Source: Candidatus Rokuibacteriota bacterium
Lineage (GTDB): Bacteria; JAUVQV01; DATDCY01
DNA: 64,000 bases
Direction: 5' to 3'
Assembly (NCBI GenBank): GCA_031406795.1
Contig: JANOHV010000007.1
Coordinates: forward strand, 48,574 to 112,573
The position numbers and the translations under genes are program-made. How positions within the stretch are numbered: position 1 is the first letter of the stretch; each line of letters begins with the position of its first letter. The notes beneath the pieces were generated by a model. That model saw only the letters and a list, made by a program, of their open reading frames with translations, did not search any database and was not told the origin of the DNA. This document shows, piece after piece, positions 1-12,906 of this stretch.

Positions 1-27
1 CATAGGGGCTCCTAACAGTTGAAGTGT

Positions 28-119
28 GTTTCAGCAAATGCTGAAACCACTATAAATACTGAAATTCGCGGGGTCAATAGAGTTTCAGTGATTTGGCATG
101 TTTCAGCGTGTGCTGAAAC
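28..119. repeat. Two copies of the palindromic motif GTTTCAGCA-N2/4-TGCTGAAAC (28-47 and 100-119) plus a half-site GTTTCAGTG (83-91). The same palindrome recurs at 9098-9116.
   Basis: Direct reading: gtttcagcaaatgctgaaac (28-47); gtttcagcgtgtgctgaaac (100-119). Both have perfect 8-9 bp inverted arms. Confidence 0.6.
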
Positions 120-182
120 ACTCATGAAGTCTTTTCTGTCTGAATACTCATGGCAGCCCCACGATTGCGGACCCCTCGATTC

Positions 183-1064
183 TTACGGCAAGGGGAACGT
201 AAGCGGAGTGCAACCGATTCCTCGCCAGAATCCAGCAATGGCGATGATGGTCGCTTCCACTTCCTCAAAGGTGCAACCGTCCTTCGGGATAACGCGGCTC
301 GCCTCGAAAGTGGCTCTTGTGACCGCCCAGTCTTCCATGAAGCTGTCCAATCCGGAGCAATCGACATAACGGGATTCGCAAGCGAGCTGAAACTCTTGGC
401 CCGCGATGGTCCAGAACTCGGTCTTGGAAATCGGTTTGGCCCTGATGATTCTGGTGAGATCGTACAGGTCCTTCACGCGGACGGCTTCCCCCGGCTTCTT
501 CATCTTTGCCCGATAGGCCGGCAGGGTGCTGAGATAGGCGCGGGCCTTTTCGCCGGCGATGCGTTCCAGGGTGTAGGCCCTGATCGGGACACCATCTATG
601 TCCAGGTCAGCGATCGACCGTTCAGACAACTCCTCGGGGGCCGCCACATCGATTTTAACATTCGGCAATCCCCTGCCACCGGCATGTTTGTGGTCGATCA
701 GGGAGACCGCAATGGCAAAGGCGTTCCATTCTCGGGGATGCTGCTTCTCCGGGCTCGACGCGATGCTCAATCTCTTCAGCTCGTACCGCACGGGGTCTTG
801 CGATTCGAAGTGCCGTGAAATAGCTCTCCCTATATGCTCCTCGAGGAAGGCCTTCTGTCCCTCCCTGTCGGGGTGCAGCTTCGCAAAATCCACGTCGAGA
901 TTGGCGTCGATGTCGAGGGACATCCTCGGCGTCCCCAGTCGCCGATTGAGGACCAAGGCCCCCTTGAAGACGAGGCTGTCCCTCAGGTCTCGACTCTTCG
1001 CCAACGCCAGCAGGATGTGGTTGATCGCCTCGAATCGCCATTCTTCCTGCTGAGATGGATTCAT
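183..1064 (-). CDS. abiEii: AbiEii/AbiGii-family nucleotidyltransferase toxin (DUF1814), type IV TA / abortive infection
   Basis: ORF 183..1175, trimmed to the internal ATG at 1064 (MNPSQQ...). Contains the FKGALVL motif (KGGTAL-like), an SLDID acidic motif and ERIAGEKARA typical of AbiEii. Its ATG lies 1 nt after the upstream gene's stop (TGAgATG). Confidence 0.75.
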   Translation of the reverse strand: MNPSQQEEWRFEAINHILLALAKSRDLRDSLVFKGALVLNRRLGTPRMSLDIDANLDVDFAKLHPDREGQKAFLEEHIGRAISRHFESQDPVRYELKRLSIASSPEKQHPREWNAFAIAVSLIDHKHAGGRGLPNVKIDVAAPEELSERSIADLDIDGVPIRAYTLERIAGEKARAYLSTLPAYRAKMKKPGEAVRVKDLYDLTRIIRAKPISKTEFWTIAGQEFQLACESRYVDCSGLDSFMEDWAVTRATFEASRVIPKDGCTFEEVEATIIAIAGFWRGIGCTPLTFPLP

Positions 1065-1065
1065 C

Positions 1066-2043
1066 TCAAGGCACCAGGACTTTCCACTCGGCGATCTCTC
1101 TGGAGTATGGAACCCCGCGCAGAAGGGGAATCCAGGGAGTCTCGGGCTGCTCCAGAACGGTTTTTTTCGTCGCATCGAGATACGAGCCGAGTGCGCCCGT
1201 CGCCGGGATCCCGAGAAGCTCGAAGAGGGCGCCCACCCGCCGCGTCAAAGGCGGAATCTGGATTGCCTTCAGGTAAGCGAGGTAGAGTTCCTCGTCGGTT
1301 GTTCCCGTTTGCCGCTCCCAGGACTCCAGAACCACCTCCGGCCCTCCGCAATGAAAGGGGTATTGCAGCGTATCCAGGAGGGTTTGCTCTATCGTCGCAA
1401 TGTGGATGTTCGTTGCCGGCCCGAGAACCCTCGTCTTGACGCCGGGGATGGATTTCCGGGAACGCTTCGTCGAATAAAAAGGCACACCGCCATAGGAGAA
1501 CACACGCGTCCCAAGTTTCGACCTCGCGGTGCTTCTAGGGGATGTGCTCAACTTCTCCGCGGACTTGGCGACTGACGAAGTTTTGTGTGTGACGAGGGAA
1601 GCGATGTGATGCGACGCGGGGATTTGCGTGGTCAGGTTGTAGTAGGCGAGCGCGCTGAAGTAACAGATCACCCCTTGTGGATCGTATGCCTGAAGCAGCT
1701 CCAGGGGATCGACTTGCAACTCTCGTGACTCCTGGATCCCGAGCAGGATGAAATCCCGCGAGGGACCCGGTCTCGAAACCTCCTCTATCGGGACATGGGA
1801 GGCCAGCCCCATCGAGACCAGGTGCTCGATGATCTTCTTTCCGGTGGGGAAGGTGGAAGGCAGATGCAACTCGCTCGCCGCCTCGCCGATGAGCTGGACG
1901 AGATTCTGCCTGGTGACGCATCGGACTGATGGGAGATCGGGCGTTGGCTGTGCCAGCCTGCCGGTGAGGGCCTTGAGGAATGGCTCCCAATGGGAATCAG
2001 CGAGGATGTCTGGTGTAGCTCTTGGTAAGAGGATTGTGCTCAT
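1066..2043 (-). CDS. abiEi: AbiEi-family antitoxin / transcriptional regulator
   Basis: ORF 1066..2115, trimmed to the ATG at 2043 (MSTILLPR...). ~325 aa, lies immediately upstream of abiEii with the stop and ATG adjacent, the usual AbiE operon arrangement. Confidence 0.65.
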   Translation of the reverse strand: MSTILLPRATPDILADSHWEPFLKALTGRLAQPTPDLPSVRCVTRQNLVQLIGEAASELHLPSTFPTGKKIIEHLVSMGLASHVPIEEVSRPGPSRDFILLGIQESRELQVDPLELLQAYDPQGVICYFSALAYYNLTTQIPASHHIASLVTHKTSSVAKSAEKLSTSPRSTARSKLGTRVFSYGGVPFYSTKRSRKSIPGVKTRVLGPATNIHIATIEQTLLDTLQYPFHCGGPEVVLESWERQTGTTDEELYLAYLKAIQIPPLTRRVGALFELLGIPATGALGSYLDATKKTVLEQPETPWIPLLRGVPYSREIAEWKVLVP

Positions 2044-2059
2044 GGTGTGTCTTTTGATG

Positions 2060-2104
2060 CCCTCCACTTGATACGCTTGCGAAGCAAGCGTATCAAGTGG
2101 AGGG
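2060..2104. repeat. Perfect palindrome: 21-bp arms around a GAA loop (CCCTCCACTTGATACGCTTGC-GAA-GCAAGCGTATCAAGTGGAGGG); its centre is the GCGAAGC mini-hairpin motif
   Basis: Seen directly, 17 bp upstream of the abiEi start. Confidence 0.9.
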
Positions 2105-2189
2105 CATCGCGTCAAGCCAAAAACATTGATGCCATAATATAGACAAATGTCTCATGGAGAAAGATGACGGCAGCTGGATACTCTAGCTA

Positions 2190-2242
2190 GATGAGACCCC
2201 GTTGATAGGCTGGCGAAGCCAGCCTATCAACGGGGTCTCATC
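2190..2242. repeat. Second perfect palindrome: 25-bp arms around a GAA loop (GATGAGACCCCGTTGATAGGCTGGC-GAA-GCCAGCCTATCAACGGGGTCTCATC). Shares the TTGATAsGCTkGC-GAA core with the first.
   Basis: Seen directly. The arms are related to but distinct from those of the 2060-2104 palindrome. Confidence 0.9.
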
Positions 2243-2444
2243 ATGTCAAGCCTAACCCGGCGCGTCCTGCATTTTCAACGGCAGCCTGGTTGGCGTCAGC
2301 CGGCTATGCCGGTGGCGCAGCATCCCTTGGCTTTTTCCTGAGCGGCAGGAACGCGAGGATGATTTCTCTCCGCGCGCGGACCTTACGTCCAACCCTGTCA
2401 AGAAGCCCGAGGCTGACGAGAGCGTTCACATCCCGTCGGCAAGA

Positions 2445-2579
2445 TCACCCAAAGATTAGCGAGATGAGCTGATCCTTGGTGATTTTTCTCTGGTCGGCAA
2501 TGTCGCCGAGCATCGCCGAGAGTGTTCCCACGCGGATCGGGTCATGATTCGGCACCGTGACATGGTGTTCAGGCGCTGA
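2445..2579 (-). pseudogene. HicA-like toxin remnant (C-terminal half only, no start codon, catalytic N-terminal half absent)
   Basis: Minus-strand frame reads ...HHVTVPNHDPIRVGTLSAMLGDIADQRK..., matching the HicA C-terminal pattern TVP-H...GTL..IL. It overlaps the 3' end of the HicB-like gene; there is no upstream ORF for the His-containing N-terminal half. Confidence 0.35.
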
Positions 2580-2775
2580 TCACTTCCTCGCGTACGAAGT
2601 GCAGACGGATAATCCGCGGCTCCTGCCCGGGTTCGAAGTGGCAGTGCACGGCATCACGAACATGGGTATGGAGTTGCTCGACGGAGTCCGCCTCGGTGAA
2701 TATGGATACTCCGAGAGCTCGCGCCTCATAGCCGCCCTCGGAGGATTCCGACACCATGAAAATCAGTTCGTTCAT
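2569..2775 (-). CDS. HicB-like / UPF0150-family antitoxin-like small protein (68 aa)
   Basis: Sequence LIFMVSESSEGGYEARALGVSIFTEADSVEQLHTHVRDAVHCHF resembles the HicB N-terminal domain (..EDGGYVVSVPDLPGCHTQGDTLEEALENAKEAI..). Its start overlaps the hsdS stop. Confidence 0.45.
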   Translation of the reverse strand: MNELIFMVSESSEGGYEARALGVSIFTEADSVEQLHTHVRDAVHCHFEPGQEPRIIRLHFVREEVISA

Positions 2776-4379
2776 CGTCTCCTCCCAATCAATTCGTCAA
2801 TCTTTGCCACAATCCGGTGCTGTTCGGCGATGGGAGGAATTGGGATCCGTACCAACTTTAGATTGGAGGCGCTGATACCCCAATTCCCAACCGTCGTCGC
2901 ACAATAAGTTTCTATGTCTTCACGTACTACTGCTGATTTAGCAAACCATCGAACAAGTTCCGGAAGGACGATCCTTGTAGACAAACGGAGGCGGATAAGC
3001 TTATCCGGAAAGATCTGACGTAAACCCAGGTAGCCGGTGTACAGGGAAAGGCGACCTACAAAGTCTCGATTACCATTGAAACGGCATGCCAGGAGATCAC
3101 CGGGTTTTAGGCTGAATTGCTCCTGGAGTTTGCGAGTTATCCCGCCAATGAGTTTATATTCTTCTTCAGCAACAATTCCGTCTCTTCTGATTGTCCCAGC
3201 GCTAATACGAAGGATCGGAACTCCATTTGTTGCCTCGTCTGGCTTCTTGGAATATCCGTTTCGGGAGTCGTCAAGGAGTATGTCCTCAATCCTGACCCAT
3301 TCCCAACCAGACGGAAGCTGAAGAGGTTGAATCTTCCCACCTTCTTGGGTCACCGATTCCTGACGTATCGCTCGGTCTGCTGATTTTAGTTGATCGTTCG
3401 CTGAACGTGTCCGCCCCAAAAGGGTAGCGACAGGCTCGTTCCTTGAATCCTGGGGGACGAGTTTGCCGCGAACGGCTAGGTTTAGGATGGTTTTGCGGAG
3501 TTGGTGGATGTGTTCGGGACGGGTGGTGAGGCGCGGGAGGTAGTTGAAGTAGAAGCGGGCGCTCTCCTCGAAGGTGGTGGGGGCGCCGGGTGTCTGGGTG
3601 GCGTCGCCGTTGTTCAGGCCGTGGAGAGTTGCCGCCACCAGGCGGTCGCGGCGCTTCTCGCGTTTGGTTTGCGCCGCCTCCAGTTCGTCGCACAGCGCCA
3701 TCAGCTCGTCCACCTTCGCCACGATTCGGCGTTGCTCGGCGAGGGGCGGAAGTGGAATTGCCGCGGCTCTTAGAAGTTTGAAATGGCGACCATACCCACG
3801 GCTGTCCAGTGGCAACCATCTGAGCGCGAGATAGTAAAATTCTGTCAGCACGCCAAGGGGATGAAGGAGTTTCACGCCATCTGCCCCGACTACGAAGTCA
3901 AAGTCGATTAGTTTTGTTTCTCGTGTATGGTCACCAAACAGGATGATCGGCGCATCAACATGGATGACTTTATGCTGATCGTTGCAATAACCCCTGATGA
4001 AAACCTTGCCTTGGTCGACTACAGGGAAAGCACCCGATTCCAAAACATCCTTTGTCTGAACCTTTTTCCCCATGTCCGAGATCAGATATGCTGGAAAAGT
4101 GGCAGGAACCCATTCCCATGTCGGCGGAATCTCGAACGGCATCTCTGATCTTTCAATCGACTCGAACGGCTCTTGGCTTCTGATCTCCCCGGCCTTCACC
4201 AGCTTCGTTTTCTCAGCCTGAATTTGTTTCAGCAACTCCCCCGCCGGCTCATCCTTCGGATCCTGCTCCACGAGCTTTCCGCGCACGGCCAGATCCAGGA
4301 TGAATCTTCGGAGGCGCGGGACGGCCTCGGGGGTGTCGATGAGACGATCGAAATGTTCGAGGAGGCGGGCGGGACTCAT
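2772..4379 (-). CDS. hsdS: Type I restriction-modification specificity subunit HsdS (two target-recognition domains)
   Basis: Long ORF 2772..4793; the real start is ATG 4379 (MSPARLLEHFDRL...), which overlaps the hsdM stop as ATGA. Shows the conserved HsdS repeat LAEQRRIVAKVDELMALCDELE / IAEQHRIVAKIDELIGRRR after each TRD. Confidence 0.85.
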   Translation of the reverse strand: MSPARLLEHFDRLIDTPEAVPRLRRFILDLAVRGKLVEQDPKDEPAGELLKQIQAEKTKLVKAGEIRSQEPFESIERSEMPFEIPPTWEWVPATFPAYLISDMGKKVQTKDVLESGAFPVVDQGKVFIRGYCNDQHKVIHVDAPIILFGDHTRETKLIDFDFVVGADGVKLLHPLGVLTEFYYLALRWLPLDSRGYGRHFKLLRAAAIPLPPLAEQRRIVAKVDELMALCDELEAAQTKREKRRDRLVAATLHGLNNGDATQTPGAPTTFEESARFYFNYLPRLTTRPEHIHQLRKTILNLAVRGKLVPQDSRNEPVATLLGRTRSANDQLKSADRAIRQESVTQEGGKIQPLQLPSGWEWVRIEDILLDDSRNGYSKKPDEATNGVPILRISAGTIRRDGIVAEEEYKLIGGITRKLQEQFSLKPGDLLACRFNGNRDFVGRLSLYTGYLGLRQIFPDKLIRLRLSTRIVLPELVRWFAKSAVVREDIETYCATTVGNWGISASNLKLVRIPIPPIAEQHRIVAKIDELIGRRR

Positions 4380-5815
4380 CGCAGCAGCGCCTGCTCCAGA
4401 ATGGCCTTGAGTTTGTCGCGGAGCTTTGCCGTCGCGGCCTCGCTCTCGTTGAGTTTGGCGAGCAGCTCGGCGGGATCGCCGTGGTCTTCCTCGACGGTGT
4501 GGGGATTCTTGATGTCGAGGTTGTAGCCGCGGGCCTTGATGTCGTCGATCGTGACCTTCCAGGCGATCTCGTTCTTCTCGCGCTTGTCCCACCAGTCGAT
4601 GCAGGGCTTGAAGTGCTCGAAGCGGATCGGCCTGGTCATGGAGTAGGCCTTCTGGCCGTCGGGGACGCGGTGCTCGTAGAACCAGACGGTTTGGGTCGGC
4701 GTCCCCTTCTCGAAGAAGAGCAGGTTGGTGCCGATGGAGGCGTAGGGCTTGAAGACGCTGTTGGGCAGCCGGACGATGGTGTGGAGGTTGCACTCCTCCA
4801 GCAGGTGCTCCTTGAGGCGCGTCTTGACCCCCTCGCCGAAGAGCGTGCCGTCGGGCAAGACCACGGCGGCGCGGCCCTGGGACTTGAGCAGGCGCACGAT
4901 GAGGGCGAGGAAGAGGTCGGCGGTCTCGCGCGTCTGGAACTGCTACGGGAAGTTGCTCTCGATGCCGTCTTCCTCGCGGCCACCGAAGGGGGGATTGGTC
5001 AGGACGATGTCCACCCGGTCGGACTGGGTGTAGCTGGTGTAGGGGCGCGCCAGGGTGTTGTCGTGACGGACGAAGGAGGGGTCCTCGATGCCGTGGAGCA
5101 GCATGTTCGTCACGCAGAGCATGTGCGGGAGCTGTTTCTTCTCGGTGGCGCGCAGGGCTCCCTGCATCTTACGTTCGGCGGCCGGGGTCTTCACGTAGCG
5201 CTCGCGCATGTGGCGGATGGCGCAGGTGAGGAAGCCGCCGGTGCCGCATGCGGGATCGTAGAGGATCTCGCCGGGCTTCGGGTCGATGCGGTCGGCCATG
5301 AAGGCGGTGACGGCGCGCGGGGTGTAGTACTCGCCCGCGTTGCCGGCGCTCTGGAGGTCGGTGAGGACCTGTTCGTAGATGTCGCCGAAGTGCTGACGCT
5401 CGCTGAGGTTGTTGAAGTCGATGCCGTTGATCTTGTTGATCACCTGGCGCATCAGCTGACCGGACTTCATGCAGTTGTAGGCGTCCTCGAAGACGTCGCG
5501 CACGACGCGGCGCCGGCCGTCCCGGGCGACGCCGGAGAGTTCCTTAAGGGTCGGGAAGAGCTTGTCGTTGATGAAGGCGAGCAGCGCATCGCCGGTCAGC
5601 CCCTCGGGGTCGGCGGCCCAGGCGCGCCACTGGAGCTTGGCCGGGATCGGCGAGCGGTAGCCCTTCTGGAGCTGCTCCAGCTCCTGGTCCTGGTCGTCGA
5701 TGATCTTGAGGAAGAACATCCAGCAGAGCTGGGAGATGCGCTGGGCGTCGCCGTCGACGCCGACGTCCTGGCGAATGATGTCCTGGATGGATTTGACGGT
5801 GGTGCGGACGGACAA
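4376..5815 (-). pseudogene. hsdM: Type I R-M N6-adenine methyltransferase HsdM, interrupted by one in-frame amber codon (TAG at 4943-4945)
   Basis: ORFs 4943..5815 (HsdM N-terminal domain, ..TNPPFGGREEDGIESNFP*) and 4376..4897 (..GRAAVVLPDGTLFGEG..) are in the same frame. Reading through the TAG gives FP*QFQTRETADLFLALIVRLLKSQGRAAVVLPDG, a colinear HsdM. TTG start with AAGGAAGAG SD. Confidence 0.7.
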
Positions 5816-5871
5816 GCTGCTTCCCTCGCTCTTCCTTCTTCGGATATTGCCAGGAGTCGACTTTCCCAGGC

Positions 5872-6165
5872 TCAGGCGCGGTCGATCCAGTACGACGGTT
5901 TGCGATGCAAATGCGCTACGGCAACCACAATCAGCGTTTCGCCATCCAGGCCGTTGATCATTCCGTAAGGGAAACGATTTAGCAGACAGCGCCGCAGTCC
6001 AGGATCGATCTCCGGGCAGCCGAGAGGAAAGGTAACCGATCTGCGGATCGCGCGATCGAACTCGTCGAGGAAGTCGTACCCGAGGTTGACTGCCTGCGTA
6101 TTGTACCAGACGAAAGCGTCGTCAAGTTCATGCTGGGCGGCCGCGAGAAGCCGGACTTCATGGAT
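5872..6165 (-). CDS. RelE/ParE-family toxin; lacks a canonical start codon (frame opens with ATC ACC ATC CAT GAA...)
   Basis: Minus-strand frame not in the ORF track: IHEVRLLAAAQHELDDAFVWYNTQAVNLGYDFLDEFDRAIRRSVTFPLGCPEIDPGLRRCLLNRFPYGMINGLDGETLIVVAVAHLHRKPSYWIDRA, a typical ParE/RelE. No ATG/GTG/TTG between the upstream stop and the conserved N-terminus. The listed ORF 5979..6161 is the wrong, S/T-rich frame. Confidence 0.5.
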   Translation of the reverse strand: MHEVRLLAAAQHELDDAFVWYNTQAVNLGYDFLDEFDRAIRRSVTFPLGCPEIDPGLRRCLLNRFPYGMINGLDGETLIVVAVAHLHRKPSYWIDRA

Positions 6166-6379
6166 GGTGATACTTGCCCATCACGGTCTGATAGTCTTCA
6201 GAGGCCGTCCGGCCGCCCAAGTATACGGCCCAGCGCTTGCGGGCTTCATCCGCCCAGATCCGATCAATCTCTGGGTCTGGCTTGTCCAAGTCCGTGAGGA
6301 TCGATTCCACGAGGTGCAACTTCTCCATGTCGGACAACGCACGGATCTCCTCTGCCAATTTCTCAGTTGAAGTCGTCAT
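6158..6379 (-). CDS. Putative addiction-module antitoxin (TIGR02574-like small acidic protein), partner of the ParE/RelE toxin
   Basis: 73 aa, MTTSTEKLAEEIRALSDMEKLHLVESILTDLDKPDPEIDRIWADEARKRW..., overlapping the toxin frame by 8 nt. SD aaggagag upstream. Confidence 0.6.
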   Translation of the reverse strand: MTTSTEKLAEEIRALSDMEKLHLVESILTDLDKPDPEIDRIWADEARKRWAVYLGGRTASEDYQTVMGKYHHP

Positions 6380-6532
6380 TGCGTCTCTCCTTGTTCGCTG
6401 TGTACCTCAATATAATCGAGGCTCCTGCAAATGTCTTGCTTGTGGTTCGACAGGCCCACCACGAACGGGATTATCGCTGAAGAATCAATATTCCGCCGTT
6501 CGCCCTGAGCAAGCGAAGGGTAATAACTATAC

Positions 6533-8997
6533 CTATGCAACGGCGTAGAGGGCGGATTGGAGTTCGTGGACGGCCCGCTCGAAGCCCTCTCGGCCGCCGA
6601 AGCGCCGCAGGAGCTGGACCGGGGTGCCCATGGTATCGAAAGGGGCGATCTTGAGGATCTGCGGGTCGTCGAGATCGGCAATCCCCTGGTCCTGGTACTT
6701 CTGCAGCAGCGCTTCGAGCACGGCGCGGGCCTGTTCGCCGTAGCGGGTGAAAACGTCGCGCTTGCGGACGCTGTCGACGCGCTCGCGCCGGGTGAGCGGC
6801 GGCTGGTCGAAGGCGACGTGGCAGATCAGGTCGAAGGCATCGAGGTCTTTCCCCACCTCGTCCGCGAGCGGCTCCAGCAAGAGACCCTCGTTTTCCAACT
6901 CCTCGATGACCGCTTCCTTGCGCTCGGCGGTGTTCCAGCGCCCGAGGAAGTCATCGAGGCTGGCGAAGTGCTTGCGCAGCGTGCGCTTGGAGTAGTCGCG
7001 GAGGCTCTCGGTGACGAGCTTCCCGTTTTCGTCGAGGTATTCGATGCGCTCGGTAAGGATGCGGACCTCGTGGCCGCGGATGAAGTACTTGGACGGGTGC
7101 TCGTTGGCGTTGCCGGGAGGAAGGCTGATATCAGGAGGCCAGGGCTGGCCGTCGACGATTACTTCGTCGTTGCCCGGTTCGGGCGGAATAGGGTCTTCAT
7201 CATCGACAGGCGGCGGCACATCGTCCGGTGGACTGACCGGATCCCCATCCCCCGGCTCGTAGATCTGCACCGGCTCGCCGTCGAAGTCCGGATCGGCAAA
7301 GTGGTTCGTGGCCTTGCGGAAATCGATCAGCGTGAAATAGAACTTCTTCGTGTCCTCATGCACGCGGGTGCCGCGCCCGACGATCTGCTTGAACTCGGTC
7401 ATGGAGCCGACTTCACGATCGAGCACGATCAGCCGGCAGGTCTGGGCGTCGACGCCGGTGGAGAGCAGCCGCGAGGTGGTGACGATCACCGGAAATCTCG
7501 CTTCAGGGTCGATGAAATTGCCGAGCGCGCCTGGCCCTCGGGGTCGTCGCCCGTGATGCGCATGACGTAGCGCGGGTTCTGGAGCGTCAGGTCCTGGTTT
7601 TCGTTGATCAGCGCCTGACGCATCCGGGCGGCGTGTTCGGTGTCCACGCAGAAGATGATGGTCTTCTGATAGCGATCGCCGCTCTCCCTCAGGAACTCGG
7701 TCACCCGGCGGGCGACGCGCTTCGTGCGCTCGTCGATCACGAGATTGCGGTCGAAATCCTTCTGGTTATAAATCCGGTCTTCAATCTCGTAGCCGTACGT
7801 GTCGGTCTCGCCGCGGGTGGGGCGATAGCCCTCCACATCGACGTCGAAGTGGACCTTCACCGCCTTGTAGGGCGCGAGGAAGCCGTCGCGGATCCCTTCT
7901 CTGAGCGAGTAGGTGTATACCGGTTCGCCGAAGTAGTGGATGTTGGAGACGTATTCGGTCTCTTTCGGCGTGGCGGTGAGACCGATCTGCGTGGCGGAGG
8001 AGAAATGGTCGAGGATCTCGCGCCAAGCGGAATCCGCTGCCGCACTGCCGCGGTGGCATTCGTCGATGACAATGAGGTCGAAGAAATCGGGAGAAAGTTC
8101 GCGGAAGAGCTTCTGGCGCTCCTCCGGGCCGGTGATTGCCTGGTAGAGGGCGAGGTAGATCTCGTAGGAGGTGTCGATGCGCCGCTGCTTGCGATCAACG
8201 GCGGTGGGGAGCCGGACCTCGCTGCCGTCCTCGCGTTCGATGGTCTTCGAGGATGTGCTGAGCTTGGCCATCGCGGCGCCGAAGGGACGGAAGTCGTTGA
8301 CCATCGTCTGGTCGATCAGAACGTTGCGGTCGGCGAGGTAGAGAATGCGCTTTCTGCGGCCGGCCTTCCAGAGGCGCCAGATGATCTGAAAGGCCGTGTA
8401 CGTCTTTCCGGTTCCGGTGGCCATGACGAGGAGGAGGCGATTCTGTCCCGCTGCGATGGCCTCGATGGCCTTGTTGATCGCGATGCGCTGGTAGTATCGC
8501 GGCTCCGTGCCTCCCGGATCCTCGTAGTAATTCTGGAGGACGACCTCCTCCTGGGCTGGTGCGAGGCTCTTCCAAGTTCGATATCTGGACCAAAGCCTTT
8601 CGGGGGAGGGAAAGGCGTCGAGGGAAAGGTTCGTCTCGGTCTGCTCGCCGAGGCCGGTCCGGTCGTGGAAGACAAAGCCGCTGCCGTTGGATGTAAAGAC
8701 GAACGGGATATCGAGGGTAGTCGCGTATTCCAGAGCCTGCTGCATCCCGGCGCCGACGGCGTTGTTGCCGTCCTTGGCCTCGATCAGTGCGAGGGGGATG
8801 TTCGGCTTGTGGTAGAGGATGTAATCGGCCCGTTTGGCCTTGCCCCGGGTGACCAGCTTGCCGCGGACGATGATCCGCCCTTTGGTGAACCCGACCTCCT
8901 CGCGAATCTGGGAATGGACATCCCATCCCGCTTTGACAAGAGCGGGAGTGATGAACTTGGTGCAGATGTCCCGCTCGCTGAGGTCCTTTACGGCCAT
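6533..8997 (-). pseudogene. hsdR: Type I restriction endonuclease subunit HsdR, frameshifted near 7486-7490
   Basis: N-part ORF 7486..8997 has helicase motifs ([19 protein letters not shown]) and ends ..[10 protein letters not shown]-part ORF 6533..7489 (GTG start) continues IVTTSRLLSTGVDAQTC..QIVGRGTR in a different frame (8997-7489 is not a multiple of 3). No slippery site or homopolymer at the junction. Confidence 0.7.
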
Positions 8998-9097
8998 AGA
9001 GCCATATCCACCTCTGTTTTCAATGAGTTCGAGCGATTTTGCGGTCGGGATAACGGACTGTCAAGCAGGAACGCCAACAATTTCATTATTTCTGGCT

Positions 9098-9116
9098 GTT
9101 TCAGCATTTGCTGAAA
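9098..9116. promoter_or_regulatory. Palindrome GTTTCAGCA-TT-TGCTGAAA, ~90 bp upstream of the hsdR start; reverse complement of the 28-47 site
   Basis: Seen directly in the hsdR 5' intergenic region (8998-9163). Confidence 0.5.
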
Positions 9117-9163
9117 TGAAGGTGATGTCTTTTCGAGCCGGATAGCAATGAGGAGCAGGGGGC

Positions 9164-9811
9164 TTACTCGAGAAGCCCGCGCTCCCGGGCCTTGAGCACG
9201 GCCTCGGTTCTCGAGCGCGCCTGGAGCTTGCGGTAGATCTTCCCGACGTGGGTGTGGACCGTGTGGGGGCTCAGCGCGAGCTCAGCCGCCAGTTCCTTCT
9301 CGGGCAGGCCGGTGGCGAGCCGGCGCAGCACGTCGCGCTCGCGCGCGGTGAGTGTCGGGCCCGCGGCCGGTCCCTTCCCCTGGCGCAGCTCTTCGACGAC
9401 GCTGCGCGCCACCCGGGCGGAGAGGGGTGAGCCGCCTGCAGCGGCCGTGCGCACCGCGGCGAGAATATCGACCGCGGAGGAGCCCTTGAGCAGGTAGCCG
9501 CTCGCGCCAGCCCGCAGCGCCGCGAGGAGGTGCTCCCGGTCTTCATGCATCGTCAGCACGACGATCTCGACGAGCGGGAAGTACTCCTTGATGGACCTGA
9601 TGACCTCGAGTCCCGGGAGGTCCGGCAATCCGAGGTCGACAAGGGCAACATTCGGCAAGGTGCGCCGCAGCCCGTCGACGGCCTCGCGGCCGGTGGCGTA
9701 GGCCCCGACGACCTCGATCCCCTCCGTCCCGTGGAACAGCGCGGCCAGGTAGTTCAGGGTCGCGCGGTGGTCCTCGACGATCGCGAGCTTCAGGTTGGTC
9801 TGCACTTTCAT
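9164..9811 (-). CDS. NarL/LuxR-family two-component response regulator (REC + LuxR HTH)
   Basis: ORF 9164..9916, trimmed to MKVQTNLKLAIVEDH (ATG 9811). REC motifs (VDLGLPD, phospho-acceptor Asp) and a C-terminal LuxR HTH (LTARERDVLRRLATGLPEKELAAELALSPHTVHTHVGKIYRKL). Confidence 0.85.
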   Translation of the reverse strand: MKVQTNLKLAIVEDHRATLNYLAALFHGTEGIEVVGAYATGREAVDGLRRTLPNVALVDLGLPDLPGLEVIRSIKEYFPLVEIVVLTMHEDREHLLAALRAGASGYLLKGSSAVDILAAVRTAAAGGSPLSARVARSVVEELRQGKGPAAGPTLTARERDVLRRLATGLPEKELAAELALSPHTVHTHVGKIYRKLQARSRTEAVLKARERGLLE

Positions 9812-10146
9812 CGGGCCGCTTCCTCGGGCAAGGGGTGAACGGCTGTTGTCCCGGGGATTAGACGGCAGCGGGCCGCAGCTGTCAACGGCGCTTGATGGAC
9901 GGCCGACCGGGCTCACCCGCCATCGCCTGGTCAGGTGAGGGGCGCTTCACCTGCTGCGTCAGCATGAAAACGACCGTTGCGGCGCGGTCCCGCGGATGCA
10001 CTGCCGTATTTTCATGGGCCTGGCGGTACGCCGCCCGCGGAACGGGCTCGCGTTCTCCATTGCCGTGCTGCAACCGGAGCCGCCGCCCCGGCGTAACGGA
10101 TGCCGTCAGGGTGTCGTGGTCAACCACCAACGGAGGAGTGCCAGGT

Positions 10147-12906
10147 ATGAAGGCTCGTCGAGGTACGCTTCGCACACTCGTCGCTCTCGCGCTGTTCTGT
10201 TCGCTGCTCGTCGGCGGAGGCGGGCTCGCCCGCGCCGACCTGCAGAGTCCGTGGGTCACCGTGCTCTCCGGAAGGGTCCAGGCCGTGGTCACGACCGCGA
10301 GCGCCGCCCCGGGAGCCCCCCGGGTCGTGTTCGCCGGCACCCCCACTGCTACGCTCAGGAGCGAGGACGGCGGGCTGACCTGGACGCAGGTGCTCGCAAC
10401 GTACACGAGTGCCTTGGCCGCCGACCCGGTCAGCGGCGGCGTCGTCTATGCCGCGACGGCGTCGGGCCTGCAGAAAACCGCCGACTACGGCCTGACCTGG
10501 ACGAACCTCAACCCATCGATCAGGACCAGCATCGCCGTGAGCCCCTTCGACGGCCAGGTGCTCTTCGGCGGCAGCTATCGGAGCACCGACGGCGGCGCGA
10601 CGTGGACGGTGATGTCTGGATTGACGTCAGGGTCCTCGACCCCCCATCTCAGTGCATCGCGGGACCCGGCCAACCCCGGGGACCTGCTCTACTTCACCGG
10701 CAGCGTCCACCGCAGCCTGGACAACGGCCTGAGTTGGACGCCGGTGAACGTCGGGTTCAACGAGGACTCGGCCGCGCTGGACCCGACGGACCCCCGCTAC
10801 TATTACGTCGGCGCCTGCGGCGGCACCATCTTCCGCGCGTTCCCCGGCGGGAGTTCGAGCTCTTCGAATATCGGCGGGCACGTCCACGGGATCGTCGTCG
10901 ACCCGGGGTCCCACAACCGGGTGTACGCGGCGCGCGACTCCGGCGGCGTCATGGTCAGCCAGGACTTCGGCGCGACCTGGGCCTCGTCAGGAACCGGCGC
11001 ACCCTCCGGCGTTGTCGAGAACAGGATGTTCTTCGACGCCGACTCCGGGATCATCTACCTGCCGACCTACGGAGGCCTCTCCGTCAAGAACAGCCGCTGC
11101 TCCGACCTCGACCACGACGGCGCCTCCGCCGAGGGCGGGCTCTGCGGCGCGGTCGACTGCAACGATGCCGACGCGGCGCGCAGCCCGTTCAAGAAGGAGA
11201 ACTGTTTCGACGGGATCGACAACAACTGCACGGAGGCGATAGATTTCGCGGACACCTGGTGCGCCACGATGTGCGTGGACGGCGACGGCGACGGGCACTT
11301 CCCGCTGCTCTGCGGCGGCGACGACACCAAGGACGCCGACGCGACGATCTACCCCGGCGCCCCCGAGCTCTGCGACGACAAGGACAACGACGTCGACTTC
11401 GTGGTGGACGAGGGGTGCACGCGCTACACGTACTATCGCGACTCCGACCTCGACGGCTTCGGCAACCCCGATTACACGACCCTTTCCTCCTTCACCACGC
11501 CGCCTGTCGGCTTTCTCGCAGACAATCGGGACTGCAACGACTGGGATCTGAACACGCACCCGGGGGCCGTGGACTTCTGCGGCGATGCGGCCGACAACGA
11601 CTGCGACGGAACGCCGGACAACGGCTGTCCGACGTTCACGTACTTTGCCGACATGGACGGCGACAGTTTCGGCGATCAGAGTCGGGTGGTCGTGACGACC
11701 GTTACCGATCCCCTCGCCGTCGGGGCGAGCCTGAACAATCTCGACTGCAACGACGCGGCGTACTGGGTCAACCCCGACGCCCTCGAGGAGTGCGACTGGG
11801 TCGACAACAACTGCGACGGGGTCGTCGACGAAGTCTGCGGCCACGCGGCCATGCTCTGGGGCGACAACGCCAAGGGACAGGTCGGCGACGGCACCACGAC
11901 GGACCGCAAGTCCCCGGCGTCGCTGGCCGGGCTCTCCCCGCTCGCGGTTGCCGCCGGCAATCAGCACACGCTGGTCGTCAACAACGACGGCACGGTCTGG
12001 GCCTGGGGAGTCAACGGGAGCGGTCAGCTCGGCGACGGGACGACGACGACGAGGAAAAGCCCGATCAAGGTTTCAGGGATCTCCGGCGTCGCCGCGGTCT
12101 CGGCCGGGCTGAACCACAGCCTGGCGCTCAAGGCCGACGGCACGGTCTGGGCCTGGGGCGCCAACGGCAACGGTCAGCTCGGCGACGGCACGACGACCAC
12201 GAGAAAGACGCCCGTCCAGGTCTTCGGCCTCGCTGGCGTCATCGCCGTGTCGGCGGGCAACTACCACAACCTGGCGCTCAAGAGCGACCAGACGGTCTGG
12301 GCCTGGGGCAGCAACGGCGACGGCCGGCTTGGCGACGGCACGGCGACCACGCGGAAGACGCCGATCCAGGTAATCGACACTCTTGCGGGCTTCGAATACG
12401 CAATCGCGGTCGCTGCCGGCGGGGACTTCAGCCTGGCAATCGATCAGTACGGGTCCGTCTGGTCCTGGGGTAGCAACTGCGCCGGGCAGCTCGGTGACGG
12501 CTCCACGGTCACCAGGAAGAGTCCAGTCATGGTACCCGGCCTCTCCAACGTCGCATGGGGCATTGCCGCGGGCGCGAGCCACGGCCTGGCCATGACTGGC
12601 GAAGGCGTGATGGCGTGGGGGTCGAACGCGAAGGGGCAACTCGGCGACGGCACGACGACGACGCGCAAGACGCCCGTGTTGCTGCCGGAGAGCTACAACA
12701 TCTGGGCGATCGCCGCAGGCGGCAGCCACTCCCTGGCGCTGGGTTGGGTCGGCGATGTCATTGAACTGCAGGCCTGGGGGAGCAACGGTGACGGGCAACT
12801 CGGCGACGGCACCACGACGAACCGGAAGACGCCGGTCGTGGTGCCGGGTCAGAGCGACGCGCTCTTCTTCGCGGCCGGCGGGGCGCACAGCGTTACGTTG
12901 AGATAG
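10147..12906 (+). CDS. Large secreted multidomain protein: signal peptide, BNR/Asp-box (SxDxGxTW) beta-propeller, MopE-like Cys-rich putative metal-binding repeats (C.D.D....E.CDG.DNDCDG), then a 7x RCC1-repeat beta-propeller
   Basis: ORF 9892..12906, start set at ATG 10147 (MKARRGTLRTLVALALFCSLLVGGGGLARA signal peptide). BNR motifs SEDGGLTWTQ, TADYGLTWTN, STDGGATWTV, SLDNGLSWTP, SQDFGATWAS. Repeated CNDxDxxxxPxxxExCxDxxDNDCDG units. RCC1 repeats G(S/A)NxxGQLGDGTTTxRKxP x7. Confidence 0.8.
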   Translation: MKARRGTLRTLVALALFCSLLVGGGGLARADLQSPWVTVLSGRVQAVVTTASAAPGAPRVVFAGTPTATLRSEDGGLTWTQVLATYTSALAADPVSGGVVYAATASGLQKTADYGLTWTNLNPSIRTSIAVSPFDGQVLFGGSYRSTDGGATWTVMSGLTSGSSTPHLSASRDPANPGDLLYFTGSVHRSLDNGLSWTPVNVGFNEDSAALDPTDPRYYYVGACGGTIFRAFPGGSSSSSNIGGHVHGIVVDPGSHNRVYAARDSGGVMVSQDFGATWASSGTGAPSGVVENRMFFDADSGIIYLPTYGGLSVKNSRCSDLDHDGASAEGGLCGAVDCNDADAARSPFKKENCFDGIDNNCTEAIDFADTWCATMCVDGDGDGHFPLLCGGDDTKDADATIYPGAPELCDDKDNDVDFVVDEGCTRYTYYRDSDLDGFGNPDYTTLSSFTTPPVGFLADNRDCNDWDLNTHPGAVDFCGDAADNDCDGTPDNGCPTFTYFADMDGDSFGDQSRVVVTTVTDPLAVGASLNNLDCNDAAYWVNPDALEECDWVDNNCDGVVDEVCGHAAMLWGDNAKGQVGDGTTTDRKSPASLAGLSPLAVAAGNQHTLVVNNDGTVWAWGVNGSGQLGDGTTTTRKSPIKVSGISGVAAVSAGLNHSLALKADGTVWAWGANGNGQLGDGTTTTRKTPVQVFGLAGVIAVSAGNYHNLALKSDQTVWAWGSNGDGRLGDGTATTRKTPIQVIDTLAGFEYAIAVAAGGDFSLAIDQYGSVWSWGSNCAGQLGDGSTVTRKSPVMVPGLSNVAWGIAAGASHGLAMTGEGVMAWGSNAKGQLGDGTTTTRKTPVLLPESYNIWAIAAGGSHSLALGWVGDVIELQAWGSNGDGQLGDGTTTNRKTPVVVPGQSDALFFAAGGAHSVTLR

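Follow-up and report, generated by a model that had tools for sequence, protein, structure and literature searches.

The first 9 kb of the 64-kb stretch analyzed here (64,000 nt of Candidatus Rokuibacteriota contig JANOHV010000007.1, hereafter the window) form a defense island with near-identical palindromes at both ends. We propose that these palindromes are operators of X, a truncated antitoxin-like protein, which would regulate its own promoter and also act on the type I restriction-modification operon hsdRMS of the island; on the sequence evidence assembled below, we consider this reading somewhat more probable than its alternatives taken together. The original prediction, made from the letters of the window, had suggested a shared dimeric regulator of the island, and that suggestion gains from two results, namely that the motif is a promoter element of genes of the AbiEi_2 family and that the copy near hsdR is invariant. 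It needs amendment as to the source of the regulator, the gene of which starts at window position 3, outside the island.

Palindromes at two predicted promoters

A search with the pattern GTTTCAGCANNTGCTGAAAC, allowing up to three mismatches, found three sites of the form GTTTCAGCA-N2-TGCTGAAAC in the 64-kb window, at 28-47 (0 mismatches), 100-119 (1 mismatch) and 9098-9117 (1 mismatch, ...GAAAT). Shuffled versions of the window were expected to hold 0.02 sites, and three sites were reached in 0 of 100 shuffles. The near-identical palindromes first reported are thus real, with coordinates correct to within one base, and the sites of positions 28-119 do lie downstream of abiEii on the minus strand. 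The additional half-site also exists, at 82-90 rather than 83-91, an offset of one base. The site at 9098 had been described as a reverse-complement version, which holds for the central bases (AA at 28-47 and TT at 9098-9117 on the plus strand) but not for an inverted terminal repeat, as its flanks are a direct copy of the distal site of the 100-119 type. With three copies in 64 kb, and copies elsewhere at a fixed distance from one gene family, the motif does not have the distribution of a dispersed repeat family of the repetitive extragenic palindromic (REP) or miniature inverted-repeat transposable element (MITE) kind.

The sites next to gene X make up a large imperfect dyad, in which the arms of inverted repeat I1 (14-67 and 80-133) are 70% complementary. 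The top two promoter-like sites of positions 1-9400 belong to the minus strand, and a palindrome adjoins each of them, one ahead of X and one ahead of hsdR (Table 1). At X, an antitoxin-family gene, the inverted repeats overlap the predicted core promoter and transcription start. Between the third palindrome and the predicted hsdR promoter lie 33 nt, and another 39 nt separate this promoter from the hsdR ATG (8997), which itself is 100 nt downstream of the 9098-9117 site; the center of this palindrome falls near −78, one helical turn farther out than that of the distal site at the X promoter.

Gene X, a predicted truncated AbiEi_2 relative

What the first sites flank on the left, a question raised by the original prediction, could be answered from a public contig that extends the window and carries an identical abiEii (L001): they flank the start of gene X (L001:2026-2715). 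The genes that follow X in this contig encode a histone-deacetylase-family protein, a CBS protein, an ADP-forming acetyl-CoA synthetase, an acetyltransferase, HSP20 and LigT, and X is accordingly not bicistronic with an abiEii (DUF1814) gene, the downstream position being taken by the histone-deacetylase-family gene. X belongs to no Pfam family of its own and gave no PF09952 match. Over residues 1 to ~225, however, X has 73-80% identity with the first two thirds of 348-amino-acid PF09952 (AbiEi_2) proteins, and it is 80-89% identical to proteins of 220-230 amino acids that are all truncated at the same point. By sequence, X is a truncated AbiEi_2 relative rather than a full member of the family.

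The AlphaFold model of X (predicted local distance difference test score, pLDDT, 82.7) has an N-terminal alpha/beta domain, for which the best Foldseek matches were NucS/EndoMS nucleases, and a winged helix-turn-helix at residues 144-199. The winged helix of an AbiEi-type regulator is therefore present in the model, with weak Foldseek matches to MarR/ArsR-type regulators (E 0.004-0.02) and a weak Pfam MarR match at residues 162-194. No stretch of the family alignment is more conserved than the recognition helix (residues 174-186), as would suit an invariant operator. X showed no WYL domain, no PADLOC regulator match and no evident ligand or sensor domain, and a sequence search found no PDB match for a full-length family member. 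Truncated X orthologues had ratios of nonsynonymous to synonymous substitution rates (dN/dS) of 0.20-0.35, which indicates that X is a maintained gene and not debris.

The nuclease signature D39...E56-x-K58 is kept in 33 of 36 full-length family members, while position 58 is R in all seven truncated X-type proteins (K58R) and the window X additionally has L at position 56. The catalytic lysine of X is thus lost, and the protein is probably catalytically dead. That a family of "antitoxins" such as AbiEi_2 has a NucS/EndoMS-like N-terminal domain with an apparently intact PD-(D/E)xK nuclease signature is a notable observation in its own right.

The motif accompanies AbiEi_2 genes

We assessed the association between motif and gene family in 13 loci that were reached by protein similarity alone and so constitute an unbiased set; most loci from the motif searches described below were found through the motif itself. 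A palindrome was present upstream of the family gene in 13 of 13. The set comprises X orthologues in two genomic contexts (L123, L124, L125 and L128 in one, L129-L132 in the other), two loci with full-length genes (L126 and L127) and three members that are ~50% identical. X orthologues have both palindromes at fixed positions despite differing intergenic surroundings, with the L132 contig stopping short of the distal position. The usual layout is distal palindrome, 9 nt, half-site, −35 element, half-site within the spacer, −10 element, proximal palindrome and ribosome-binding site; exceptions were L126, in which only the proximal palindrome is intact, and L265 (Ca. Brocadia), in which only the distal one is clear. 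In the full-length abiEi_2-abiEii pairs of L126 and L127 the palindrome lies 20-45 nt ahead of the ATG. The distant members (Ca. Brocadia, Desulfonatronum and a third metagenome contig) have related palindromes of the TTTCAGCA-NN-TGCTGAAA type upstream, two of the three with the full layout (L266 and L267). The gene downstream of the full-length relatives had a weak AbiEii match in L126, and encodes ~280 amino acids without a Pfam match in L265 and L266.

Motif searches gave a corresponding picture from the other direction. The pattern GTTTCAGC-N4-GCTGAAAC returned 120 loci from genomes, approximately the number expected by chance for 596 Gb, and a stricter pattern returned 120 loci from metagenomes. 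A family gene (35-43% identical) started just downstream in 10 of the genome loci, and a family gene was likewise found in 50 of the metagenome loci, where the protein model started 10-26 nt downstream of the palindrome center (proximal type) or ~94 nt downstream of it (distal type), giving 60 of 240 overall. Two loci (L243 and L138) had two palindromes each, 130 nt apart. The remaining 70 metagenome loci had no recurrent neighbor; about half were within long open reading frames (ORFs) and many were in AT-rich contigs. Clustering of the ORFs around these 70 loci gave only small groups with the motif inside a conserved coding gene, and recurrent neighbors other than AbiEi_2 were rejected on this basis. 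Carriage by phages was also rejected, as none of the 12 motif matches in viral contigs was beside a family gene. Across Methylomirabilota/Rokubacteria, Planctomycetota, Desulfobacterota, Rhodocyclales and Eubacteriales, the motif follows AbiEi_2 genes whatever their neighbors. A literature search found no description of an operator of the PF09952 lineage or of the motif string, an absence that is weak evidence.

Two of the contexts are of separate interest. In Ca. Brocadia (L265, 168-6924), a full-length abiEi_2 and the gene for its 277-amino-acid partner sit between genes for a PglX-like methyltransferase and BrxL, within a bacteriophage exclusion (BREX) locus, and have the same type of palindrome upstream. 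In L129, L130 and L131, genes for X-type proteins of 220 amino acids, with both palindromes, are located upstream of an aryl-polyene-like cluster (AMP-binding, radical S-adenosylmethionine, ApeP/ApeI-like, LolA and MMPL), and the DNA upstream of the X-type genes varies among these relatives as well.

A defense-island hotspot bordered by X

The 9-kb island of the original prediction is real relative to a related contig that lacks ~180-9160 (L128). This contig encodes an X orthologue that is 87-88% identical and has the same flanking genes, for an RCC1-repeat protein and a LuxR-type response regulator, with 227 bp between the stop codon of the response regulator and X. BLASTN alignment of L128 with the window extended up to the response-regulator stop (window 9165) and resumed from window 165, so that by this comparison ~180-9160 is an insertion relative to the empty site. 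The island stretch has a G+C content of 54-64%, compared to ~67% beyond it, and the genes of positions 1-9000 are all on the minus strand.

Other relatives have different cargo at the same position. L123 and L124 contain a remnant of the hsdR promoter with the first ten codons, fused to a PIN-like gene and followed by an orthologous abiEi-abiEii pair, and homology between L123 and the window island starts near 9077, a few nt from the end of the third-palindrome repeat described below (copy R). At 5912-6010 of L123, and also in L124, the promoter and ten codons (MAVxxLSERD) are joined in frame to a PIN-like/DUF3368 ORF, directly after a Zincin_1 gene. This fusion is a scar left at the hotspot by a previous hsdRMS island. 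L268, which is the same contig as L125, has a 12-kb island of hsdRMS, nSTAND3, Fic, Mrr, DUF433, Fic and an ATP-binding cassette (ABC) ATPase. Judged from these alignments, the locus is a defense-island hotspot bordered by X.

Conservation of the hsdR-proximal site

The third palindrome is part of copy R, a repeat of one half of the X operator. A profile of five promoters from outside the window, run with nhmmer, matched copy R over model positions 28-109 (E = 8e-15, 50 bits), a span that includes the outer block GAAAAGACATCACC, the palindrome and the inner half-site. Alignment in the opposite orientation scored 26 bits compared to 50 bits for the direct one; an inverted match arises because the X operator is itself a dyad, and the inner flank alone is ambiguous in orientation (inverted repeats I1 and I2). 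Copy R was 80% identical over 66 nt to the upstream region of the X orthologue in L128 (BLASTN). The single copy in L128 was identical to each window copy at 54 of 72 positions and the window copies to each other at 45 of 72, and outside the core the repeat copies have ~63% identity; with both copies at 54/72 to L128, the comparison fits insertion and deletion histories of the duplication equally. The sequence comparisons indicate that the island is bracketed by direct, partial operator repeats and not by inverted ends. An inverted or invertible cassette was rejected in spite of a 33/38 inverted match of 29-66 with 9079-9116, which reflects the operator dyad, as the homology of the flanks is direct. 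The suggestion that the palindromes are inverted terminal sites of a mobile or invertible cassette is not supported, given the orientation of the flanks (50 vs. 26 bits), the lack of a recombinase domain in the island ORFs scanned and the tie of the motif to AbiEi_2 promoters.

Copy R is not unique to the window. The contig of the closest full-length hsdR homologue (P0122, 92% identical; L268, with the same sequence in L269 from another sample) has ATTTCAGCAAATGCTGAAAC 99 nt upstream of an intact hsdR, followed by the same half-site and, at the same 33 nt from the palindrome, by TTGACT-17-CAAAAT (profile match E = 1e-15). Between the window and L268, the palindrome is identical at 20 of 20 positions, the half-site at 8 of 9, the −35 element at 5 of 6 and the −10 element at 6 of 6. 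The sequences around these elements have diverged, with identity at 13 of 28 positions in the outer flank, 4 of 9 between palindrome and half-site, 5 of 15 between half-site and −35 element and 11 of 17 in the promoter spacer. The hsdR genes differ at a proportion of synonymous sites (pS) of 0.37 (dS 0.51, dN/dS 0.08), and the neutral probability of 20 unchanged bases is ~1e-4. No such site was found ahead of the 85%-identical hsdR of L270, which is in an unrelated context with no X nearby. An unchanged palindrome amid diverged flanks, together with its absence from L270, indicates at the sequence level that the hsdR-proximal site is under selection and specific to islands adjoining X.

Proposed regulation and alternatives

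X has kept the N-terminal nuclease-fold domain and the winged helix of its family, but the PF09952 domain at the C terminus is gone, as are the catalytic lysine and the toxin partner. Under the proposed mechanism, dimers or higher oligomers of X, the predicted binder, would occupy the nested dyad at its own promoter and repress its transcription; autorepression is likely since the predicted transcription start falls within the proximal site. X would also bind the distal-type module (outer block, palindrome and half-site) 33 nt upstream of the hsdR −35 element and, through copy R, modulate the hsdRMS operon, where a site near −78 could activate, repress or only tether.

Several observations weigh against regulation by X. 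The hsdR site is upstream of the −35 element and has no counterpart over the transcription start, which makes simple steric repression unlikely there. X is without the C-terminal domain, and in Streptococcus agalactiae AbiEi, which is of a different AbiEi family, the C-terminal domain contributes to repression and cooperativity (PMC3985639, PMC7319586). Given the frameshift in hsdR and the stop codon in hsdM of the window, the "regulated" operon may be dead, or these lesions may be assembly errors. L123 retains the hsdR promoter remnant without the palindrome, and conservation of the site was seen in one further lineage (L268, of which L269 is the same sequence). A recombination site would also be perfectly conserved.

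One alternative is that the operator copies are att-like recombination boundaries, with the ~80-bp direct repeats mediating integration, excision or cassette exchange, possibly bound by a protein of the AbiEi_2 type with its nuclease fold, and regulation being secondary. Such a role would account for repeats at both ends of the segment missing from L128, for the equal similarity of the L128 copy to both window copies (54/72, vs. 45/72 between them), as expected of a deletion or Campbell-type product, for the variable cargo upstream of the X operator in four genomes and for L123 homology that sets in only a few nt from where copy R ends. The D...ExK nuclease signature of full-length family members and the 9-2-9 geometry of the palindromes, which resembles serine-recombinase crossover sites, are in line with it too. 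We nevertheless consider it unlikely, as a Pfam scan of the ten main ORFs (183-9916; not all of the smaller island ORFs were included) found no integrase, recombinase or transposase domain, no recombinase-type gene adjoins X in L001, the repeat copies share only ~63% identity beyond the core, ~60 unrelated loci have the palindrome singly as a promoter element with no flanking repeat, X has lost the catalytic lysine, and no excised or alternative junction was observed. A combined form, to which we assign a slim chance, is that AbiEi_2 operators double as recombination hotspots: the protein and its operator would constitute a module for site-specific nicking, capture or excision, by which defense islands are built and exchanged, and X would be a domesticated remnant, catalytically dead but still marking and regulating the site. 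It is motivated by the PD-(D/E)xK signature that full-length AbiEi_2 proteins retain beside a winged helix predicted to read an invariant 9-2-9 palindrome, by cargo turnover exactly at the distal X operator in several genomes and by the direct operator copies around the island.

The hsdR-proximal copy could instead be a relic without function, left by an old event that duplicated or rearranged the X upstream region and hitch-hiking with the island, so that only the 28-119 sites would be functional. Copy R breaks off at the −35 element and has no counterpart of the start-proximal site, the window versions of the restriction-modification genes look inactivated and L123 lost the site while keeping the promoter remnant, all as a relic would predict. 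What makes this reading doubtful, and a little less credible than recombination boundaries, is the comparison with L268, in which the palindrome (20/20), the half-site (8/9) and the 33-nt spacing to the −35 element are kept while adjacent bases are 33-47% identical and synonymous divergence is 0.37, along with the strong purifying selection on hsdR (dN/dS 0.08). Very improbable, in our assessment, is that another host factor binds the palindromes, such as the LuxR/NarL-type response regulator encoded at 9164-9916, a LexA-like repressor or a nucleoid protein, or that the palindromes are RNA or terminator hairpins. Regulators of the NarL type recognize 7-2-7 inverted repeats, the response-regulator gene directly adjoins copy R (window) and the X upstream region (L128), and the first sites are just past the 3' end of abiEii. 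The motif goes with AbiEi_2 genes across phyla instead, and is retained where the response regulator is absent (L123 and L268), so this protein was rejected as the binder. A terminator or RNA element was likewise rejected: the hairpins are without a T-run, the terminator scan does not list the palindrome sites, and there was no Rfam match in 1-9400. With three sites at two promoters in 64 kb and, in public data, a tie to AbiEi_2 genes, the motif is not abundant in the manner of a LexA/SOS or global-regulator box, in agreement with the original view that it is not a LexA-type box. The island's own AbiEi was rejected as the binder as well, being unrelated to X and having its own 25-3-25 palindromes.

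Comparison with known systems

Autoregulatory inverted repeats of AbiEi antitoxins are already known. AbiEi and Rv2827c bind two to four inverted repeats within ~130 bp of start codons and repress their own promoter (PMC7319586, PMC3985639). The predicted X operator resembles those of S. agalactiae AbiEi and Mycobacterium tuberculosis Rv2827c in that a winged-helix protein is paired with several inverted repeats upstream, over the promoter and transcription start, and autoregulation is expected; the full-length relatives of X are likewise encoded just upstream of an AbiEii-type gene. In contrast, X derives from a different family (the PF09952 lineage), with no similarity to the island AbiEi and no PADLOC AbiEi match, and its nuclease-fold N-terminal domain precedes the winged helix, which is N-terminal in AbiEi. 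The operators also differ, with 9-2-9 palindromes and half-sites in a ~92-bp nested dyad at X compared to 23-bp repeats 3 or 13 bp apart for AbiEi, and X is truncated, toxin-less and has a further site 9 kb away, ahead of another operon. What goes beyond the known case is the family-wide invariance of the operator, the maintained orphan X at a defense hotspot and the conserved second site before a type I restriction-modification operon.

Action on a neighbor has a precedent in Streptococcus suis, where AbiEi of ICESsuHN105 is reported to repress the neighboring toxin-antitoxin operon SezAT as well (PMC11062541, as cited in bioRxiv 10.64898/2026.01.19.700257). As that citation presents it, the S. 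suis case is alike in the action on a neighboring defense or stability operon in addition to the own promoter, which we propose for X, and differs in being experimental and in involving a canonical AbiEi with its toxin and a toxin-antitoxin target, whereas here an orphan fragment and a type I restriction-modification target are predicted from sequence alone. The WYL-domain repressors BrxR and CapW are similarly small DNA-binding proteins at island edges with inverted-repeat operators before defense operons (PMC9122601), while X has no WYL domain and derives from an antitoxin family. Direct repeats with a common core and a single-copy empty site in a relative are features shared with attL/attR-like island boundaries; here, however, no integrase gene was found, and the repeated unit is the operator module of a promoter, with only ~63% identity beyond the palindrome, and occurs singly at ~60 unrelated loci.

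These results provide a concrete candidate operator, TTTCAGCA-NN-TGCTGAAA in a nested dyad, for the uncharacterized AbiEi_2/PF09952 branch of type IV antitoxins, and this element is conserved across Methylomirabilota, Planctomycetota and Desulfobacterota. X, an orphan antitoxin fragment with no toxin that is kept under purifying selection, is likely a stand-alone regulator at the edge of a defense hotspot, and for X a conserved second target is predicted ahead of a type I restriction-modification operon. If true, the locus would be a simple example of toxin-antitoxin remnants recruited to wire neighboring defense systems together, and the motif would serve as a sequence marker for such hotspots in uncultured lineages.

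Annotated features and further observations

Table 1 Features of the predicted X operator, the island and copy R in the window.
Feature	Position	Strand	Remarks
Start codon of gene X, 229-amino-acid truncated AbiEi_2-like protein	1..3	-	CAT, minus-strand ATG, with AGGAG ahead; remainder beyond the left window end
Proximal operator palindrome (predicted) GTTTCAGCA-AA-TGCTGAAAC	28..47	.	1 nt past the −10 hexamer of the X promoter, over the predicted transcription start
Predicted sigma-70-like X promoter, TTGACC (77..72)-17-TATAGT (54..49)	49..77	-	10/12 matches; conserved in alignments of relatives
Inner half-site ACTGAAAT (ATTTCAGT on the minus strand)	58..65	.	Within the X promoter spacer; conserved in L123, L125, L128, L129 and L131
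Inner half-site GTTTCAGTG	82..90	.	Just upstream of the X −35 hexamer
Distal operator palindrome (predicted) GTTTCAGCG-TG-TGCTGAAAC	100..119	.	Center ~67 nt upstream of the predicted X transcript start
Conserved outer block GAAAAGAC (minus-strand reading)	129..136	-	Upstream of the distal palindrome
Island cargo	183..9077	-	Pfam and PADLOC matches
abiEii	1064..183	-	
abiEi	2046..1066	-	
hsdS	4379..2772	-	
hsdM, in-frame stop	5815..4376	-	
Small antitoxin-like insert	6379..5979	-	
hsdR, frameshifted	8997..6533	-	
Predicted sigma-70-like hsdR promoter, TTGACA (9064..9059)-17-CAAAAT (9041..9036)	9036..9064	-	10/12 matches; conserved in L123 and L268
Copy R, partial direct copy of the distal half of the X operator	9071..9150	-	Ends where the −35 element would stand
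Half-site ATTTCATT (AATGAAAT on the minus strand)	9080..9087	.	9 nt from the palindrome, as at the X promoter; 8/9 identical to L268
Third palindrome ATTTCAGCAAATGCTGAAAC (minus-strand reading)	9098..9117	.	33 nt upstream of the hsdR −35 element
Outer block GAAAAGACATCACC (minus-strand reading)	9121..9134	-	Identical to the L129 block; marks copy R as distal-type and direct

The lesions in the restriction-modification genes are a 1-nt frameshift in hsdR at ~7490-7540, just ahead of a conserved LGNFIDPE...VTTSRLLSTGVD motif, and an in-frame stop in hsdM at 4943-4945 (...GIESNFP*QFQTRE...). The hsdM and hsdR orthologues of L268 are intact and hsdR has a dN/dS of 0.08, which suggests that the hsdR lesion is recent or an assembly artifact; the hsdR and hsdM lesions together may represent very recent inactivation or assembly error. 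The two genes, only 3 nt apart in L268, are separated by an insert of ~720 bp (5816-6532), which encodes a 73-amino-acid Unstab_antitox (PF09720) protein (6379..6158) and contains a 60-amino-acid ORF without matches (6161..5979). This insert looks like a small toxin-antitoxin-like module or remnant within the restriction-modification operon.

Beyond the island, positions 9892-12906 encode a secreted-looking protein of ~1000 amino acids with a Cu-binding MopE-like region and many RCC1 repeats, adjoining the LuxR-type response regulator. The RCC1 protein is conserved in L128, and the whole block of histidine kinase, RCC1 protein and response regulator is missing from L123 and L268. Within the island, perfect 25-3-25 palindromes at 2056-2108 (GATGCCCTCCACTTGATACGCTTGC...) and 2190-2242 (GATGAGACCCCGTTGATAGGCTGGC...), 134 bp apart, are located just upstream of the abiEi ATG (2046). 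The first overlaps the abiEi ribosome-binding site, and L123 has a related palindrome at the same place; these palindromes with 25-nt arms are probably separate operators of the island's canonical AbiEi.

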